Shown here: one piece after another, positions 10,259-18,700 of the stretch | Layout of the letters: the number at the start of each line of letters is the position of its first letter | Position numbering within the stretch: the first letter of the stretch is position 1 | DNA from: a virus | Taxonomy: Duplodnaviria > Heunggongvirae > Uroviricota > Caudoviricetes | Virus record (IMG/VR): IMGVR_UViG_2872198387_000003 | Reading direction: 5' to 3' (one strand) | DNA: 30,004 bases | Program-made: the position numbers and the translations under genes | Notes under the pieces: model-generated | The model's database searches: none | What the model was told of the DNA's origin: nothing | What the model saw: only the letters and a program-made list of their open reading frames with translations

Positions 10259-11683
10259 ATGAACACCGATAAACAAGTTTACCCACTGTATTACGAAGCA
10301 AAAAATGACAAAGTAAGAAAACGTCTCGGTATTAAAGGCGGTTTTTACTGGGCTGAAGCGAAAAAATTATCCATTGCCATCTCCCGTGGTGCTGTTGCGA
10401 TTGACGATGCAGGCTACGATGAAGATGACTTTAAAAAACCTGTTCGCGTCAATTTGCCCGTTGTTGATGACCTCCCGCCAGAAGGCGTATTTGATACGGA
10501 ATTCTGCAACCGTTACGAAAAAGGCGGGGAAGATGGCATCACAATGGTATTTATCGCATCTTCTCCCTCTGTTCAGGACAAACCGGCCAGCACTGACAAT
10601 ACCAACGTCAACGGCGAAGACATGACAGAAATTGAGGAGAACATGCTCCTGCCAGTTTCCGGTCAGGAACTGCCCATTCGCTGGCTTGCGCAACACGGCA
10701 GCGAAAAACCAGTAACGCACGTTTCACGCGACGAACTCCAGGCATTACACATTGCTCGGGATGAAGAACTACCAGCTGTTACTGCCCTGGCTGTTTCCCA
10801 CAAAACCAGCCTGCTCGATCCGCTGGAAATTCGCGATCTCCACAAACTGGTGCGTGATACTGACAGAGTTTTCCCTAATCCAGGCAATTCAAGCCTGGGG
10901 CTGATGACTGCTTTTTTCGAAGCATACATGGACGCAGACTACACCGATCGCGGTCTGCTGACAAAAGAGTGGATGAAAGGAAATCGTGTTTCACGCATCA
11001 CGCGCACGGCTTCCGGCGCTAATGCTGGCGGCGGGAACCTCACCGATCGCGGCGAAGGTTTCGTTCACGATCTGACGTCACTGGCGCGCGACGTAGCCAC
11101 TGGCGTACTGGCTCGTTCAATGGACGTGGACATTTATAACCTTCATCCGGCACACGCTAAACGTGTCGAGGAAATTATCGCTGAAAATAAACCGCCCTTT
11201 TCTGTTTTCCGCGACAAATTCATCACCATGCCTGGCGGGATGGATTATTCCCGCGCCATCGTGGTTGCGTCAGTGAAAGAAGCACCGATTGGTATCGAGG
11301 TCATCCCCGCTCACGTCACTGAATATCTGAACAAGGTACTGACTGAAACCGATCATGCCAACCCTGATCCGGAAATCGTGGATATTGCCTGCGGTCGCTC
11401 CTCTGCCCCGATGCCGCAACGTGTAACAGAAGAAGGAAAACAGGATGATGAAGAAAAAACGCAGCCATCTGGCGCAATGGCAGATGAACAGGCAACGGCT
11501 GAAACAATGGAACCGGATGCAACTGAACATCATCAGAACACGCAGCCGCTGGATGCTCAGTCACAGGTAAATTCTGTTGATGAGAAATATCAGGAACTAC
11601 GGGCAGAACTCCATGAAGCCCGGAAAAACATTCCGCCCAAAAATCCTGTCGATGCAGACAAATTACTGGCTGCCTTGAGGTAG
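10259..11683 (+). CDS. Hypothetical protein, 474 aa, acidic C-terminal region; no Walker motif or other family signature recognised
   Basis: Long uninterrupted ORF, same strand as the three small genes upstream. Confidence 0.6.
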
Positions 11684-11730
11684 CCTGTGAGGTGTACTGG
11701 CAATAGCGGACACTACCATTTGTTCTTTTT

Positions 11731-12549
11731 TTAAGCAGCCATCTGATGATATTTTTCCCTGAAGGCTGCCGGGGAGATATTCCCCAGACGAGAGTGACGA
11801 CGCTGACGATTGTAGAAAATCTCAATGTATTCCCGTATTACTGAGGTGGCTTCATCCCGGTTATTAAAACGATAGTGGCTCAGGCTCTCATTTTTCAGCG
11901 TTCCCCAGAAGCTTTCCATCGGAGCGTTGTCGTAACAGTTACCTTTACGCGACATTGATGTTTTCAGACCAGACTGCTCCTGTATGACCCGGTAATCGTA
12001 TGCGCAGTACTGTGAACCTCGATCAGAGTGGTGGATTAGCCCGGCAGGTGGGCGCTGGCTCCTGAGCGCCATAAACAGGGCTTTACCTGTCAGCTCTTTT
12101 GTCATGCGCTCTCCCATGGCGTAGCCGACAATTTCACACGTATAAACATCTTTGATGCCAGCGAGGTACAACCATCCCTCCTGTGTGGCAACATACGTCA
12201 GGTCCGCCACCCAGACCTGATTTGGTGCTGTAGGAGCGAACGTCTGGTTCAGCAGATTTGGCGCAACTGGCAGATTGTGGTTCGGGTTCGTAGTCGCTCT
12301 GAACTTGCGTTTCTGCTTACAGCGTAGCCTCAGCTCCTTACGAAGACGTGCCAGTCGGTCACGACCAACGATGATGCCATTCTCTGCCAGCTCCGTCTGG
12401 AGCCGCCGGGTTCCATATGTTTCGCGAGTGCGGATATGTGCCACCTTAATCTCCAGTTTTAGCCGCTCATCACTTTGTTTTCTGTCTGAGGGTTCATGCT
12501 GTACCCAGTTGTAATAACCGCTCCTGGATACACCAAATACCTGACACAT
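11731..12549 (-). CDS. IS600 OrfB (copy 2; one substitution, I to T, relative to the others)
   Basis: 272-aa ORF ...NRDEATSVIREY... versus ...NRDEAISVIREY... Confidence 0.9.
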   Translation of the reverse strand: MCQVFGVSRSGYYNWVQHEPSDRKQSDERLKLEIKVAHIRTRETYGTRRLQTELAENGIIVGRDRLARLRKELRLRCKQKRKFRATTNPNHNLPVAPNLLNQTFAPTAPNQVWVADLTYVATQEGWLYLAGIKDVYTCEIVGYAMGERMTKELTGKALFMALRSQRPPAGLIHHSDRGSQYCAYDYRVIQEQSGLKTSMSRKGNCYDNAPMESFWGTLKNESLSHYRFNNRDEATSVIREYIEIFYNRQRRHSRLGNISPAAFREKYHQMAA

Positions 12550-12584
12550 CGCTTCAATGGGAAATTGTTGTCGCCATTGTTCGA

Positions 12585-12887
12585 TTAACGCGTATTTTTC
12601 AGCGACTCCTGTGCAAAATACGCTGTTGCTTTTTTTAATATATCTCGCTCAAGGCGAGCTTCATTTAACGCCTTACGCAGTTGCAGAATTTCAGATTCCA
12701 GTTCAGCCACCGTGCGGGAACCAGGAGTACCGAGCCCTTTTCTGGCGGCGGTAACCCATTGTCCTAAAGTGCCTTCAGGAAGAGATAATCGGGAAGCGCC
12801 TTCACTGATCGAAAGTTGATTTTCAAGAACCGTTCTGACAGCTTCGGCTTTGAACTCTTTAGAGTAACGTTGGGTTTTTCTGCTCAT
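12585..12887 (-). CDS. IS600 OrfA (copy 2)
   Basis: Identical to the other OrfA copies. Confidence 0.9.
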   Translation of the reverse strand: MSRKTQRYSKEFKAEAVRTVLENQLSISEGASRLSLPEGTLGQWVTAARKGLGTPGSRTVAELESEILQLRKALNEARLERDILKKATAYFAQESLKNTR

Positions 12888-12962
12888 TATTAGCTCCTTC
12901 TGATGCCATTCTATTTCAGGAAGGAGTGTCCGTTAAACTCAGGCTACCTCAGTATTCCCTTA

Positions 12963-13096
12963 GAGTTAATCTTTAATTGGTCTTTAATTAAATCTTTTAT
13001 TTAATACTTAAAGTTAATCTCTAATTGTGTCTTTAAGTTAACTTTAAGTAATACTATAAGTTAATCTTTAATTGTGTCTTTAAGTTAACTTTAAGT
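12963..13096. repeat. About three tandem copies of a ~47-bp unit (AAGTTAATCTYTAATTGTGTCTTTAAGTTAACTTTAAGT), AT-rich with TTAAAG motifs
   Basis: Units at 13011-13049 and 13058-13096 are 38/39 identical; a third degenerate copy at 12964-12987. Confidence 0.7.
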
Positions 13097-13293
13097 TAAG
13101 CCCCTGTAGGGACTAGAGACCATAATTAAGATGATTGTGTCTTATTGCTATTCACTTATCGACTGACCCAGAGCACACAGGAAGCATTCACTTTAAGTAG
13201 AACGCTTGGTGTCTGTAATTGGTCATCCCGCCCCTGAAAGGATGCGATAAGTTACGGTTAGTTGTCCTAGAAGAGAAAACTTTTTGTGTCCCT

Positions 13294-13316
13294 TCTCCCT
13301 ATAGTGAGTCGTATTA
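13294..13316 (-). promoter_or_regulatory. Perfect phage T7 RNA polymerase class III promoter consensus (TAATACGACTCACTATAGGGAGA) reading toward lower coordinates
   Basis: Reverse complement of 13294-13316 is an exact 23/23 match to the T7 consensus -17 to +6; flanking sequence is not a cloning-vector polylinker. Confidence 0.7.
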
Positions 13317-13665
13317 ATTATCCCTTGATAAGTAGAGAAAACTATGAGTCAAAAACATGACCACACAGGTCTGTAGTAAGTGTCATCCTAGACTATGGTC
13401 TCCTCTAGGTCTCCTTATAAACATCAGCCATCACATTGACCAGCCTATCAACCTCGACCTCTTTAGCATAACGGTCGTACGTAATAGACCCTGAACTATG
13501 CCCCATGATCGCCTGTGCATACGCCAACTCGACCCCATGTTGTTTTAACTGGGTCGCAACTGTATGTCTAAACGAGTGAAACGCTATGTAAGTATCCCGC
13601 ATAATCGTGCCATTCACATTTAGAGATCCTCCGGCATACTCAATCTGCCAATTAAGGAGATCGCT

Positions 13666-13932
13666 ATGCGTAAAGCCCGTTTTACTGAGCATCAGATCAT
13701 CGCCGTGATTAAGTCGGTTGAAGCCGGACGAACTGTTAAAGATGTCTGCCGGGAGGCCGGTATCTCTGAAGCCACCTACTACAACTGGAAGTCCAGATAC
13801 GGTGGCATGGAGGCTTCTGATATTAAAAAGATTAAAGAGCTTGAGGACGAGAACCGCCGTCTCAAACAGATGTTTGCCGACCTGAGCCTGGAGAACCGGG
13901 CGCTGAAGGACGTTATCGAAAAAAAGCTTTAA
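13666..13932 (+). CDS. IS3-family OrfA (HTH)
   Basis: MRKARFTEHQIIAVIKSVEAGRTVKDVCREAGISEATYYNWKSRYGGM... ; AAGGAG RBS. Confidence 0.8.
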   Translation: MRKARFTEHQIIAVIKSVEAGRTVKDVCREAGISEATYYNWKSRYGGMEASDIKKIKELEDENRRLKQMFADLSLENRALKDVIEKKL

Positions 13933-14078
13933 AACCAGCCTGTAAGCGTGAGCTGGTCACTCATCTGATAACGACATTCGGACTCAGTATCCGTCAGGCC
14001 TGCCGGAGTCTGAACCTGAGCAGAACGGTTTACCATTACCGCCCGGATACCACGCGTGATGAACCCGTTATTGTCGCG

Positions 14079-14777
14079 TTGCAGGCAGTGGCAGAGCGAT
14101 ACCCACGATACGGTTTTCCGAAACTCTTCCAGGTTCTGCGGCGACAGGGATACCCATGGAATCACAAAAGGATCCACCGTATTTACTGTCTGCTGAAGCT
14201 GAATTTTCGCCGTAAGGGCAAACAACGGTTGCCGGTGCGTAATCCCTCGCCACTGGCCACGTCGGAAGCGCTGAACCAGAGTTGGTCTGTCGATTTTATG
14301 CATGATGCCCTGGTCTGTGGCCGTCGTTTTCGTACGTTCAATGTCGTTGATGACTTTAACCGTGAGGCGTTGTCGATTGAAATCGACCTGAATCTGCCAG
14401 CTCTACGCGTGGTCCGTGTACTCGACAGGATCGCGGCAAACCGTGGCTATCCGGTCAAGCTGCGCATGGATAATGGTCCGGAATTTATCTCCCTGACACT
14501 GGCTGAATGGGCAGAGAAACATGCAGTAAAACTGGAGTTTATCCAGCCGGGTAAGCCGACGCAGAACGCTTTCATTGAGCGCTTTAACCGGACATACCGT
14601 ACAGAAATACTCGATTTTTATCTGTTCAGAACGCTGAATGAAGTGCGGGAAATCACGGAAAAATGGTTGTCAGAATATAACTGTGAACGCCCGCATGAAT
14701 CACTGAACAATATGACGCCAGAGGAATATCGACAACACCATTATTTGGCCGGGATCTCAAAAAATGCCTGGAACTAA
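14079..14777 (+). CDS. IS3-family OrfB (DDE transposase; probably made as an OrfAB fusion by -1 frameshift)
   Basis: 232-aa ORF from the first Met with DDE-core features (...FMHDALVCGRRF..., DNGPEFIS..., FNRTYRTE...). Confidence 0.8.
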   Translation: MQAVAERYPRYGFPKLFQVLRRQGYPWNHKRIHRIYCLLKLNFRRKGKQRLPVRNPSPLATSEALNQSWSVDFMHDALVCGRRFRTFNVVDDFNREALSIEIDLNLPALRVVRVLDRIAANRGYPVKLRMDNGPEFISLTLAEWAEKHAVKLEFIQPGKPTQNAFIERFNRTYRTEILDFYLFRTLNEVREITEKWLSEYNCERPHESLNNMTPEEYRQHHYLAGISKNAWN

Positions 14778-15107
14778 AACGGGTCTATTTACAGCTAAGC
14801 CGCTACGGTCTACGAGGACTTTAGGCAACAACGTCCGATTAAACCATTTACTCACCTGCTCACCGTAACCGTTCTTCATGAGACGCAGACCATCGAACAC
14901 CATAGCGTCATCACCGTCAGCGCCTCTACGGGTCTCTACAAGCGCCATAAAGTCAGCCAATATAAAACCATAGGCCCCATCGACCAGAGGCACACAGCGG
15001 TCACTATGAGCGTTCTTGATGCTCTTACCGGGTAGTGAAGTGGCACACTGAATTTGGCCACCTGAACAGAGGTGATATGCTCACCTCAGAACAACACAGG
15101 TGCTCCA

Positions 15108-16276
<1,169 letters not shown>

Positions 16277-16471
16277 CCACTTCAAGTAGTAGACGCCGTT
16301 ACGCTGGTAGAGATAGTAGACTGCTGGAAGTTTGTGACTACTGGATAGCTGAATCATATGTCTGTATGCCCTGAGAGGGTTACACAGTGGGTTACAGTAA
16401 GTAACTCTGCAAGGAGGCTTAAAGCCGTATCCCTTAGGATTCAGTAGGTTGGAGTACTTTAAGAAAGGTCA

Positions 16472-16546
<75 letters not shown>

Positions 16547-16549
16547 ATA

Positions 16550-16625
<76 letters not shown>

Positions 16626-16627
16626 GC

Positions 16628-16704
16628 TGGCCCACCACCGAGGACTCGAACCTCGCACCGTCAACTTAGAAGGTTGATGCTCTATCCGGATGAGCTAGTG
16701 GTGG
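16628..16704 (-). tRNA. tRNA-Arg (anticodon UCU)
   Basis: Hand-folded: acceptor CCACCAC/GTGGTGG, anticodon loop CUUCUAA, T-loop GGTTCGAGTCC, encoded CCA. Confidence 0.75.
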
Positions 16705-16705
16705 T

Positions 16706-16782
16706 TGGTGGCCCTTGCTGGACTTGAACCAGCGACCTGGCGATTATGAGTCGCTCGCTCTGACCAACTGAGCTAAAGGGCC
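16706..16782 (-). tRNA. tRNA with anticodon CAU (ileX/ileZ-like tRNA-Ile2 or tRNA-Met)
   Basis: GGCCCUU acceptor, anticodon loop CUCAUAA; closely resembles my memory of E. coli ileX. Confidence 0.75.
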
Positions 16783-17543: not shown

Positions 17544-18362
17544 TTAAGCAGCCATCTGATGATATTTTTCCCTGAAGGCTGCCGGGGAGATATTCCCCAG
17601 ACGAGAGTGACGACGCTGACGATTGTAGAAAATCTCAATGTATTCCCGTATTACTGAGATGGCTTCATCCCGGTTATTAAAACGATAGTGGCTCAGGCTC
17701 TCATTTTTCAGCGTTCCCCAGAAGCTTTCCATCGGAGCGTTGTCGTAACAGTTACCTTTACGCGACATTGATGTTTTCAGACCAGACTGCTCCTGTATGA
17801 CCCGGTAATCGTATGCGCAGTACTGTGAACCTCGATCAGAGTGGTGGATTAGCCCGGCAGGTGGGCGCTGGCTCCTGAGCGCCATAAACAGGGCTTTACC
17901 TGTCAGCTCTTTTGTCATGCGCTCTCCCATGGCGTAGCCGACAATTTCACACGTATAAACATCTTTGATGCCAGCGAGGTACAACCATCCCTCCTGTGTG
18001 GCAACATACGTCAGGTCCGCCACCCAGACCTGATTTGGTGCTGTAGGAGCGAACGTCTGGTTCAGCAGATTTGGCGCAACTGGCAGATTGTGGTTCGGGT
18101 TCGTAGTCGCTCTGAACTTGCGTTTCTGCTTACAGCGTAGCCTTAGCTCCTTACGAAGACGTGCCAGTCGGTCACGACCAACGATGATGCCATTCTCTGC
18201 CAGCTCCGTCTGGAGCCGCCGGGTTCCATATGTTTCGCGAGTGCGGATATGTGCCACCTTAATCTCCAGTTTTAGCCGCTCATCACTTTGTTTTCTGTCT
18301 GAGGGTTCATGCTGTACCCAGTTGTAATAACCGCTCCTGGATACACCAAATACCTGACACAT
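17544..18362 (-). CDS. IS600 OrfB (copy 3)
   Basis: Identical to copy 1. Confidence 0.9.
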   Translation of the reverse strand: MCQVFGVSRSGYYNWVQHEPSDRKQSDERLKLEIKVAHIRTRETYGTRRLQTELAENGIIVGRDRLARLRKELRLRCKQKRKFRATTNPNHNLPVAPNLLNQTFAPTAPNQVWVADLTYVATQEGWLYLAGIKDVYTCEIVGYAMGERMTKELTGKALFMALRSQRPPAGLIHHSDRGSQYCAYDYRVIQEQSGLKTSMSRKGNCYDNAPMESFWGTLKNESLSHYRFNNRDEAISVIREYIEIFYNRQRRHSRLGNISPAAFREKYHQMAA

Positions 18363-18397
18363 CGCTTCAATGGGAAATTGTTGTCGCCATTGTTCGA

Positions 18398-18700
18398 TTA
18401 ACGCGTATTTTTCAGCGACTCCTGTGCAAAATACGCTGTTGCTTTTTTTAATATATCTCGCTCAAGGCGAGCTTCATTTAACGCCTTACGCAGTTGCAGA
18501 ATTTCAGATTCCAGTTCAGCCACCGTGCGGGAACCAGGAGTACCGAGCCCTTTTCTGGCGGCGGTAACCCATTGTCCTAAAGTGCCTTCAGGAAGAGATA
18601 ATCGGGAAGCGCCTTCACTGATCGAAAGTTGATTTTCAAGAACCGTTCTGACAGCTTCGGCTTTGAACTCTTTAGAGTAACGTTGGGTTTTTCTGCTCAT
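18398..18700 (-). CDS. IS600 OrfA (copy 3)
   Basis: Identical to the other copies. Confidence 0.9.
   Translation of the reverse strand: MSRKTQRYSKEFKAEAVRTVLENQLSISEGASRLSLPEGTLGQWVTAARKGLGTPGSRTVAELESEILQLRKALNEARLERDILKKATAYFAQESLKNTR

Follow-up and report, generated by a model that had tools for sequence, protein, structure and literature searches.

The window (the whole stretch of 30,004 nucleotides which was analysed) holds what is probably a non-functional remnant, shattered by IS elements, of a small integrative element, one member of an undescribed family which would parasitise phages of the T7 group (Studiervirinae). The model hypothesizes that an intact element uses its own tyrosine integrase to insert at the 3' end of a tRNA-Gly gene and that it carries three mimics in cis. 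These would be one to four promoters for the single-subunit RNA polymerase of the helper, an AT-rich array directly after the promoters which is similar to the T7 origins of replication, themselves a promoter with an AT-rich region, and near attR a copy of the sequence across the genome-end (concatemer-junction) cut site of the helper. When a matching phage infects, the phage polymerase would transcribe the element genes, the phage replisome would amplify the element from the promoter-primed origin, and the phage terminase would cut and package it at the mimic site, possibly in smaller capsids built or resized by a capsid-like protein of the element. A satellite is the most likely reading because the element copies the promoters, the origin region and the genome-end cut site of the T7-type phage of its host. 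Full-text searches of the literature returned no description of such an element, as the initial annotation, made from the letters alone, had supposed. The features of the window copy are the following.

11700..12951, minus strand: IS600, which truncates the array (99.8% identity to IS600)
12952..13099, minus strand: TTAAAG/TAAAGAC AT-rich tandem array, candidate T7-type replication-origin region, distal end removed by IS600
13100..13293, minus strand: predicted transcribed spacer from promoter to array, with a hairpin common to several genera
13294..13316, minus strand: T7 class III consensus promoter, -17 to +6 (exact 23-mer, 0 mismatches, single match)
13405..13586, minus strand: 3' fragment of the integrase gene with its stop codon (98.9% identical in DNA to the integrase gene of E. 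coli FT130)
13587..14793, plus strand: unnamed IS3-family element which splits the integrase gene (99.8% identity to copies annotated 'IS3 family transposase')
14794..15035, minus strand: middle fragment of the integrase gene, about codons 402-482 (95.9% identity to FT130 integrase DNA)
15036..16290, plus strand: IS911 (99% identity to copies annotated 'IS3-like element IS911')
16291..16471, minus strand: attL-side sequence and the first ~22 codons of an integrase gene of this family, ATG at 16357 (80% identity to FT130)
16472..16546, minus strand: tRNA-Gly(UCC), the integration target (ARAGORN)

The promoter that first drew attention to the region is confirmed: TAATACGACTCACTATAGGGAGA, the T7 class III consensus 23-mer, occurs once in the window, on the minus strand at 13294-13316, without a mismatch and identical to 6 promoters in the T7 genome. 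Its +1 G is position 13299 and the predicted direction of transcription is towards lower coordinates. Such a 23-mer is in use in laboratory vectors, and the identity could be taken to mean contamination by a vector or an engineered cassette, or a chance match. We consider an artefact of this kind practically negligible, given that the same natural context is found in 91 complete E. coli chromosomes with natural variation around the 23-mer, that relatives in other genera carry K11-, KP32- and K1F-type promoters which are not vector sequences, and that none of 100 dinucleotide-preserving shuffles of the window matched the 23-mer even with 3 mismatches tolerated (expected by chance 0). Across 10 distinct element contexts the pairwise identity is 99% for the 23-mer and 31-51% for its flanks, which argues for selection on the promoter.

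Downstream of the promoter the spacer contains a hairpin in which CATCC (13240-13244) pairs with GGATG (13224-13228); in the alignment the Klebsiella, Proteus and Citrobacter elements retain it with different bases in the stem. When the promoter-proximal transcript and spacer of the window were folded, the structure as a whole was not significant (z = -1.69). The array follows, and Tandem Repeats Finder agrees with the earlier observation of ~47-bp TTAAAG repeats at this place, giving a unit of 47 bp in 2.8 copies at 12964-13096 with 87% matches. These repeats had been likened to the CCTAAAG arrays at the ends of the T7 genome; their closest T7 counterparts turned out to lie elsewhere. In the whole T7 genome the best local alignment of the window array is with 5952-6026 and that of the intact array of FT130 with 414-495, and for both the orientation with respect to the promoter is the same. 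T7 414-495 is the AT-rich stretch just downstream of phiOL, and about 5950-6026 is the corresponding stretch of phi1.1A/B; these are the two replication origins of T7. The alignment scores of 39-48 should be compared with 25.4 +/- 2.1 (maximum 30) for shuffles which kept only the composition of the query, and the similarity is partly owed to the common AT-richness. The layout of a T7-type origin is present, in that the AT-rich region comes directly after a phage promoter on the side towards which transcription runs, and we predict that it serves as an origin.

On the other side of the promoter the same strand carries the 3' end of a tyrosine integrase gene, as had been noticed, with its stop codon at 13405-13407 directly upstream of the promoter. 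The two integrase flanks of the IS3-family element share 4 bp in the intact gene, as predicted for a target-site duplication, and at IS911 the gene lacks about 1.1 kb, roughly codons 23-401. That the copy was cut by insertion sequences is correct; the names given to them had been swapped, IS600 being the one at the array (boundary 12951/12952), the unnamed IS3-family element the one in the integrase gene at 13587, and IS911 the one at 15036-16290. The extent first proposed, 12952-15035, was too short since the element runs on to the tRNA-Gly(UCC) gene at 16472-16546. This gene is the last of a lambdoid-prophage tRNA cluster Met-Arg-Thr-Gly (16472-16782) which matches the clusters of prophages and Stx phages. 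The attL-side piece is only 80% identical to FT130, and may therefore stem from another lineage or copy than the promoter-bearing piece. No further piece of the FT130 element was found anywhere in the 30-kb window. The parts which lie distal to IS600 in intact copies are missing from it: the regulator gene, the membrane-protein gene, the packaging-site mimic and attR. What the window retains is one promoter, a truncated array and pieces of a broken integrase gene. It is a dead fragment which cannot be excised or packaged; the most that could still happen is initiation by T7 RNA polymerase at 13299, with transcription into IS600.

An uninterrupted version in related strains was looked for and found. 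Intact relatives of 4.3-6.5 kb, or 4.3-7.6 kb between att repeats, are bounded by direct repeats of the tRNA-Gly 3' end and occur in 20 enterobacterial species and in 91 of 5,426 complete E. coli genomes. The order in E. coli FT130 is tRNA-Gly, integrase gene, repeats, two perfect T7 promoters, array, KilA-N gene, membrane-protein gene and a 23-bp repeat of the tRNA 3' end; at eight further loci att repeats of 17-27 bp flank elements of 5.5-7.6 kb. The site used by the relatives is the chromosomal tRNA-Gly(CCC) gene glyU, the window copy being found in the prophage tRNA-Gly(UCC) gene instead. The intact integrase has 543 amino acids and matches Pfam Phage_integrase (E = 1.7e-18). Besides it the intact elements encode a DNA-binding protein (KilA-N or Rha-type) and 1-4 small or unknown genes; full-size members have two small proteins and an HK97-fold capsid-like protein, and the variant to which the window and FT130 belong has a 105-amino-acid multi-pass membrane protein and no capsid-like gene. 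All distal genes are located downstream of the phage-type promoters. Pfam and PHROGs scans of all ORFs of the FT130 and Klebsiella elements did not reveal an excisionase, a replication initiator or a small terminase subunit, and an Rfam search of the Klebsiella element found the tRNA alone. The spread over many genera, the presence of a Klebsiella-type promoter array in one E. coli strain and the different tRNA-Gly gene of the window copy suggest that the family is mobile.

These intact copies bear on the proposal that the region is the right end of a temperate T7-like phage, the rest having been removed by IS elements. It would suit this proposal that one strand carries a perfect T7 promoter together with T7-like AT-rich repeats and an integrase gene, and that T7-like phages which are temperate or have an integrase are found in other hosts, LUZ100 being an example. 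The uninterrupted copies in 20 species are complete att-bounded units of about 4.3-7.6 kb with no gene for RNA polymerase, DNA polymerase, portal, terminase or tail, which refutes the proposal in its original form; their capsid-like protein is unlike T7 gp10, and BLAST against a phage database matched just 59 bp around the promoter. So short a match means that the region is not a fragment of phage DNA, and we hold a T7-like prophage end to be very improbable. The intact elements have instead what is expected of a satellite: their own integrase with tRNA-Gly repeats of 17-27 bp, and at most one capsid-like gene.

The copied sequences follow the phages of the host. Phage-type promoters were found downstream of the integrase gene on the same strand in 17 of the 20 species loci, and two of the other three are contigs which end too soon after the integrase gene. 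Promoter specificity varies with the host between T7, K11, KP32-like and K1F-like. In the Klebsiella element K11-type, T7-type and KP32-type promoters are present, with 100% identity both to a promoter annotated in K11 and to a sequence which occurs 6-7 times per Przondovirus genome; the promoter type of Citrobacter, Enterobacter and E. coli-L015 matches Kayfunavirus promoters. In the E. coli copies a near-promoter, AATCAATACGACTTACTAATAGGAGACAC, stands after the array. It was rejected as a phage promoter, being only ~85% similar to T7 promoters and used by no phage group.

The sequence near attR, the tail, behaves in the same way. For FT130 the best match in the whole T7 genome is 39743-39820, a stretch which contains the start of the terminal repeat at 39778 (score 64 against 34.2 +/- 2.7). 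For the tail of the Klebsiella element the match is K11 40900-41081, with the repeat from 41001 (score 63 against 35.8 +/- 2.9), and the tails of elements with K1F-type promoters match K1F 39472-39588, with the repeat from 39527 (scores 66-75), giving only background scores with T7 and K11. The core motif of the tail occurs once per element and in the tail every time, and the type of tail match co-varies with the promoter type (T7, K11, K1F). The tail is a predicted mimic of the genome-end (concatemer-junction) cut site of the helper, with the predicted cut in FT130 at ...CTA|TCTAATAG.... What is seen directly in the genomes is the features of the sequence, how far they are conserved and how they co-vary with the type of helper; it is from these that we infer transcription, replication, excision, packaging and transfer of the element.

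The HK97-fold capsid-like protein, F3, is conserved in 11 of the 20 species. Its structure was predicted again with AF2 using divergent homologues, and the model from the shallow alignment (pLDDT 43) was set aside. The model obtained has a pLDDT of 62 and TM-scores of 0.3-0.4, values which support only the class of fold and not a function, and we assign the HK97 fold with moderate confidence. F3 has no similarity to T7 gp10 and no matches among PDB sequences, Pfam and NCBIfam. UniRef labels one homologue 'DUF4043', a label which was not reproduced.

In at least 10 loci the gene adjoining the integrase gene is RAZR (PD-T7-4; E = 8e-99), coding for a protein with a zinc finger and DUF4145 (HEPN). 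RAZR is an anti-T7 abortive-infection RNase (PMC13017515; PMC9519451) which is activated by the portal proteins of T7 and T3 (PMC13017515). Vassallo et al. noted that the PD-T7-4 gene often overlaps an integrase gene (PMC9519451), and the words 'integrase', 'satellite' and 'mobile' are absent from the RAZR paper (PMC13017515). The published accounts thus cover the gene and not the element, in which the same gene is integrase-adjacent cargo of many family members. In the window and FT130 RAZR is absent and tandem repeats fill its position; a PADLOC scan of the other accessory proteins gave nothing convincing besides RAZR. With RAZR in many members the element is probably harmful to its helper too.

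A rival reading is that the element is a stationary defence island switched on by the phage polymerase. The promoters would then be infection sensors for toxic or abortive effectors (the KilA-N protein, the membrane protein), amplification would raise the dose of RAZR, and the origin-like and cut-site-like sequences would be decoys for replisome and terminase. A proven anti-T7 RNase beside the integrase gene at 10 or more loci, the position of every distal gene behind phage promoters, and the window/FT130-type variant with its multi-pass membrane protein and no capsid-like gene all speak for it. Triggering by the T7 and T3 portal fits pure defence at least as well (PMC13017515), and seems adverse to a satellite which needs late proteins of its helper. 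A decoy does not, however, need a cut-site mimic which tracks the genus of the helper so precisely, nor a shell protein conserved in 11 of 20 species, nor an integrase with intact att sites and spread across genera, and we find a stationary island rather unlikely. PLE, PICI and P4 are satellites which pair defence with transfer, so satellite and defence island are not exclusive readings. The initial annotation had mentioned as a second choice a satellite or defence element reliant on the polymerase of a T7-like phage, and it is this choice that the promoters, the origin-like array, the cut-site-like tail and RAZR favour on comparison.

The full form of the satellite model is that these are true satellite viruses of virulent T7-group phages, switched on by the helper RNA polymerase, replicated from a copied T7-type origin, cut at a copied end site, enclosed in capsids which their own HK97-fold protein builds or down-sizes and which receive the portal and tail of the helper, and spreading across genera with RAZR as cargo. 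We give it about an even chance. Metagenome contigs of 4-5 kb encoding the integrase were considered as free or packaged forms and rejected, being ordinary fragmentary gut assemblies, one with chromosomal flanks. A scan of IMG/VR with the capsid-like protein gave 4 matches, all prophage predictions from isolate genomes and none derived from viromes or particles.

The closest experimental parallel is found in the work of Chung and Hinkle of 1990 and of Rabkin and Richardson of 1988, in which plasmids with a T7 origin and the concatemer junction reportedly replicate and enter transducing particles during T7 infection. The same cis set is present in the element (T7 promoter, then AT-rich origin region, and genome-end or concatemer-junction sequence). 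The plasmids are laboratory constructs, whereas the element is natural, carries an integrase and genes of its own, targets a tRNA gene and has helper-matched variants in many genera, its packaging being a prediction.

Among natural satellites PLE of Vibrio cholerae, the satellite of ICP1, is alike in being a small chromosomal island which responds only to a virulent phage, draws on the phage's machinery for replication and packaging and is probably detrimental to the helper, as we predict for the element. The two do not share any homologous gene. PLE, ~18 kb in size, brings a replication initiator and further factors of its own, and we know of nothing in its description comparable to the hijacking of promoters for the helper RNA polymerase. 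Ccm of SaPIbov5 is an HK97-fold protein which redirects capsid size. The SaPI/PICI are larger than the element (10-15 kb against 4.3-6.5 kb) and have temperate siphophages as helpers, whereas the presumed helpers here are virulent T7-group podophages. Several SaPI/PICI features were not found with Pfam and PHROGs in the ORFs of the FT130 and Klebsiella elements: a Stl-type repressor, AlpA/Xis, a primase/replicase with an ori of its own, a small terminase subunit or cos, a portal and a protease. Capsid-forming PICI carry a complete capsid module, the element only one HK97-fold protein and two small proteins. The minimal marine satellites PICMI/VEIME (about 5-7 kb) are likewise very small integrative elements, maybe dependent on virulent phages and maybe packaged as multimers; they encode AlpA, Fis and primase-type genes. 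No sequence relationship of the element to them was seen, and the VEIME paper mentions neither phage-polymerase promoters nor capsid proteins (PMC9618062).

If the satellite reading is right these would be the first satellites for the best-studied group of phages, and a widespread chromosomal element which reads out the polymerase of the phage would represent a novel way of parasitising phages and of sensing infection. The novelty would be greater if the element also copies the origin and the genome-end site, in variants tuned to T7, K11, KP32-like and K1F-like phages. The T7 group comprises textbook virulent phages, workhorses of biotechnology and common in therapeutic cocktails against E. 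coli, Klebsiella and Shigella, and to our knowledge no satellite has been described for it so far. The reading bears on the reason why anti-T7 RAZR adjoins an integrase gene, on which strains blunt or exploit therapeutic T7-group phages, on the existence of a natural 4-6 kb chassis for phage-dependent gene delivery, and on the possible response of natural strains with perfect T7 promoters to expression systems based on T7 polymerase. A full-size copy is present in ATCC 13883, the type strain of K. pneumoniae, which makes the idea directly testable.

The T7 promoter TAATACGACTCACTATAGGGAGA is the exact reverse complement of 13294-13316 and thus lies on the minus strand. It is the sole match in the window even at ≤3 mismatches, and 100 dinucleotide-preserving shuffles of the window gave no match at that level. 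The initial annotation had noticed this 23-mer, a repeat array following it and the end of an integrase gene before it on the same strand, and all three were recovered:

13299, minus strand: transcription start (+1 G)
12964-13096, downstream of the promoter along transcription: AT-rich tandem array, 47-bp unit, 2.8 copies
13405, same strand as the promoter, upstream: stop codon at the 3' end of the tyrosine integrase gene

The block of promoter and array is present in 91 of 5,426 complete E. coli genomes, and a 709-bp region that takes in the integrase 3' end as well has partial matches in 1,088 genomes. An uninterrupted copy in E. coli FT130 (locus L001) is located between glyU (tRNA-Gly) and the ETT2 island. 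It is a discrete 4.3-kb unit with a 23-bp stretch of the tRNA 3' end directly repeated on either side, and its order is:

first part: tRNA-Gly, gene for a 543-aa integrase, 13-bp tandem repeat
middle: two perfect T7 promoters as a 119-bp duplication, then the TTAAAG array
last part: KilA-N gene, gene for a 105-aa membrane protein, non-coding tail, attR

Integrases of this family, more than 80% identical, occur in Escherichia, Shigella, Klebsiella, Serratia, Yersinia, Citrobacter, Raoultella and Plesiomonas. A scan with one genome per species gave 20 loci, 14 of them adjoining tRNA-Gly(CCC); elements of 5.5-7.6 kb are delimited by att repeats of 17-27 bp. Clustering of the ORFs revealed a core order in 11 of the 20 species: int, an optional DUF4145 gene, the promoter/array region, and then the distal genes for a variable DNA-binding protein (KilA-N or Rha-like), F1 (about 60 aa), F2 (DUF6971) and F3 (326-402 aa), followed by attR. 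No element examined encodes an RNA polymerase, a replication protein, a portal, a terminase or a tail protein. The proposal in the initial annotation that the window holds the right end of a T7-like prophage is therefore excluded by the intact copies.

In 17 of the 20 loci, int is followed at a distance of 0.3-1.3 kb by T7-group promoters on its own strand, and two of the other three are contigs which end too soon. The remaining locus, from Morganella psychrotolerans (L009), is the only complete one in which no such promoter was found; here more than 40 bp of the sequence that directly follows the tRNA recur, at 6904 and 12396 (5.5 kb apart), which suggests two elements in tandem. The promoters differ between hosts:

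K. pneumoniae ATCC 13883 element (L003, full-size): K11-type AATTAGGGCACACTATAGGGAGA, one exact copy and one with a single mismatch; one exact T7-type promoter; one AATTAGGTAGCACTATAGGGAGA
Citrobacter, Enterobacter and one E. coli / S. flexneri lineage: CTTAACTATCACTATAGGGAGA, Kayfunavirus type
Proteus and Kluyvera elements: ATTAACCCACACTATAGGGAGA, with seven occurrences in ICP3-type phages

An annotated K11 promoter has 100% identity to AATTAGGGCACACTATAGGGAGA, and a sequence found 6-7 times per KP32-like Przondovirus genome has 100% identity to AATTAGGTAGCACTATAGGGAGA; CTTAACTATCACTATAGGGAGA has a 100% match in SFPH2 and nine similar sites in K1F. The promoter type tracks the phages of the element's host. 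All sampled E. coli copies carry the T7 23-mer, perfect or with one mismatch, in otherwise different surroundings; the promoter-anchored pairwise identity is 99% for the 23-mer versus 37% upstream and 31-51% downstream, so that the promoter itself is under selection.

E. coli 22F46 (L040) has a Klebsiella-type promoter array (K11-like, T7, KP32-type, K11-type) at 190-780, which suggests a recent transfer between genera or an element responsive to several helper genera. The promoter variants of Pectobacterium elements differ in the initiation region: ATTAACTATCACTATTGGGAGA, which is present twice, and ATTAACGACTCACTATAAGAAGA, at 4376-4400 and 4951-4975 in Pectobacterium jejuense (L006) and at 8734 and 9317 in L008; these may match promoters of Pectobacterium Studiervirinae. 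A near-promoter, AATCAATACGACTTACTAATAGGAGACAC, preceded by three copies of AATCAATACG, lies at about 14770-14800 in FT130 and is conserved in L033, L034, L036 and L037. It occupies the place of the KP32-type promoter in the Klebsiella element and matched no phage group; its similarity to T7 promoters is only about 85%.

The origins of T7 replication consist of a phage promoter and an AT-rich region, the same succession as in the element, and cloned T7 origins reportedly replicate during infection (work of the Richardson laboratory). The arrays were aligned against the whole T7 genome, with shuffles as background. The best match of the FT130 array is T7 414-495, the AT-rich stretch directly after phiOL (secondary origin), and its second-best match is the AT-rich stretch around 5950-6026 after phi1.1A/B (primary origin), which is also the best match of the window array. 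The scores are 48, 45 and 39 versus 25.4 +/- 2.1 for the shuffles (maximum 30), and the orientation of array to promoter is that of T7 in all these matches. We infer that the array may work as a replication origin.

The non-coding tails before attR were likewise compared with whole phage genomes and with shuffles:

Best phage matches of the tails (score versus shuffles)
E. coli FT130: T7 39743-39820, terminal repeat starting at 39778; 64 versus 34.2 +/- 2.7
Klebsiella L003: K11 40900-41081, repeat starting at 41001; 63 versus 35.8 +/- 2.9
E. coli L015, Citrobacter L010, Enterobacter L017: K1F 39472-39588, repeat starting at 39527; 66-75 versus about 37

The FT130 match in T7 reaches from 35 nt before the mature left end to 43 nt into the repeat. 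Each of these matches spans the genome-end cut site of the phage concerned, of which the tail would be a mimic. It had been expected beforehand that elements with K1F promoters would match the K1F junction, and L015, L010 and L017 confirmed this; against T7 and K11 their tails gave background scores only (35-39). A core motif, ACAAAAATCT(G/C)AG, is present in the elements of E. coli, Klebsiella, Proteus and two Pectobacterium species as a single copy that invariably lies in the tail; T7 has it once, at the junction. The tail matches switch phage along with the promoter type, so that both co-vary with the presumed helper. This co-variation is the strongest argument that the element would be processed by phage packaging machinery.

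F3 had no match in sequence-family searches and no similarity to T7 gp10. An AlphaFold2 model from 24 divergent homologues (pLDDT 62, pTM 0.63) gave Foldseek matches (100 PDB and 127 viral at E <= 1e-3) to essentially only HK97-fold shell proteins. The model supports the assignment of F3 to this fold class, and the protein might form a capsid of its own or resize that of the helper. The DUF4145 gene adjoining int is a full-length match (E = 8e-99) to PD-T7-4, a gene recovered by selecting for resistance to T7 and described as one that will "often overlap an integrase gene" (PMC9519451). PD-T7-4 is now named RAZR; it is a HEPN RNase that acts by abortive infection and is switched on by ring-shaped proteins of phages, among them the portals of T7 and T3 (PMC13017515). 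The element is described in neither paper.

Directly upstream of the regulator gene's ribosome-binding site is an extended hairpin of ~80 nt, conserved across genera (L003 10254-10336; FT130 about 14570-14650, minus strand). It has 29 pairs, 6 of them changed on both sides, and 97.5% of cells paired versus 38-53% in slid controls; Rfam gave no match. Our guess is that it may serve to process or stabilise the transcript, much as RNase III sites do in T7 mRNAs. In the stretch from int to the promoters, where other copies have RAZR, FT130 also has about 13 copies of GATGACCATAGGC, and after the array about 3 of TCCTATGTGG and about 4 of CTGTATGGCC. These further tandem arrays (15605-15770 and about 14885-14925) might be protein-binding iterons.

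Taken at the level of sequence, a family of minimal satellites of T7-group phages best fits the data because of the helper-specific promoters, the origin-like array and the helper-specific cut-site mimic, and also because of the integrase with att sites, the capsid-fold gene, the anti-T7 cargo and the spread across genera. The chief competing explanation is a defence island that stays in place and is set off by the phage polymerase, with the mimics serving as decoys. Activation of RAZR by the portal fits awkwardly with dependence on a helper, no particle-derived copies were found among the metagenome contigs and IMG/VR matches examined, and neither an excisionase nor a replication initiator was recognised in the elements. 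These explanations are not mutually exclusive, since PLE, PICI and P4 combine defence with transfer. The family would count among phage satellites or phage-parasitic islands, with unusual mechanics; a full-text literature search, which most subscription journals lie outside, gave no earlier description.

The window locus is a mere wreck of this family:

11700-12951: IS600, truncating the array
13405-13586: 3' end piece of the integrase gene
13587-14793: unnamed IS3-family element, second split of the integrase gene
14794-15035: middle integrase piece
15036-16290: IS911, within the integrase gene
16291-16471: attL side and ~22 integrase codons
16472-16546: tRNA-Gly(UCC), the integration target
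16472-16782: tRNA cluster (Met-Arg-Thr-Gly) of a lambdoid prophage

The initial annotation had swapped the names of IS600 and IS911. The three insertion sequences break up or terminate the surviving pieces; distal to the integrase only one promoter and the truncated array survive, and the 30-kb window lacks ~1.1 kb of integrase sequence and all that follows the array, including the tail with the cut-site mimic. The 16291-16471 piece is only 80% identical to FT130 and therefore possibly comes from another lineage than the promoter-bearing part. The target is the last gene of the prophage tRNA cluster and not the chromosomal glyU (CCC). Integration of this family is therefore not confined to a single tRNA-Gly gene, and its members can be carried within prophages; the arrangement seen here is present in no E. 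coli genome of the searched collection.

This copy is a dead remnant, and the sole plausible leftover activity would be transcription by T7 polymerase from 13299 into IS600. The promoter reads through the truncated array into orfA/orfB in sense (12585-13299, minus strand), so that T7 infection could drive expression of the IS600 transposase in this strain.

To the left of IS600 lies a Rac-like prophage, which has genes of the KilR and YdaE families (about 9418-9809; Pfam matches, at the same positions in related chromosomes) and RecE (Exonuc_VIII, 474 aa, 10259-11683). A second IS600 copy lies at about 17544-18700; the ORFs of the two copies are near-identical, orfB differing by one residue, and an IS600-mediated rearrangement may therefore explain why the prophage abuts the element. 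The same RecE protein is found in several NCBI chromosome assemblies (CP026765, CP034931, CP026788, CP026871), where the surroundings to the right of IS600 differ.
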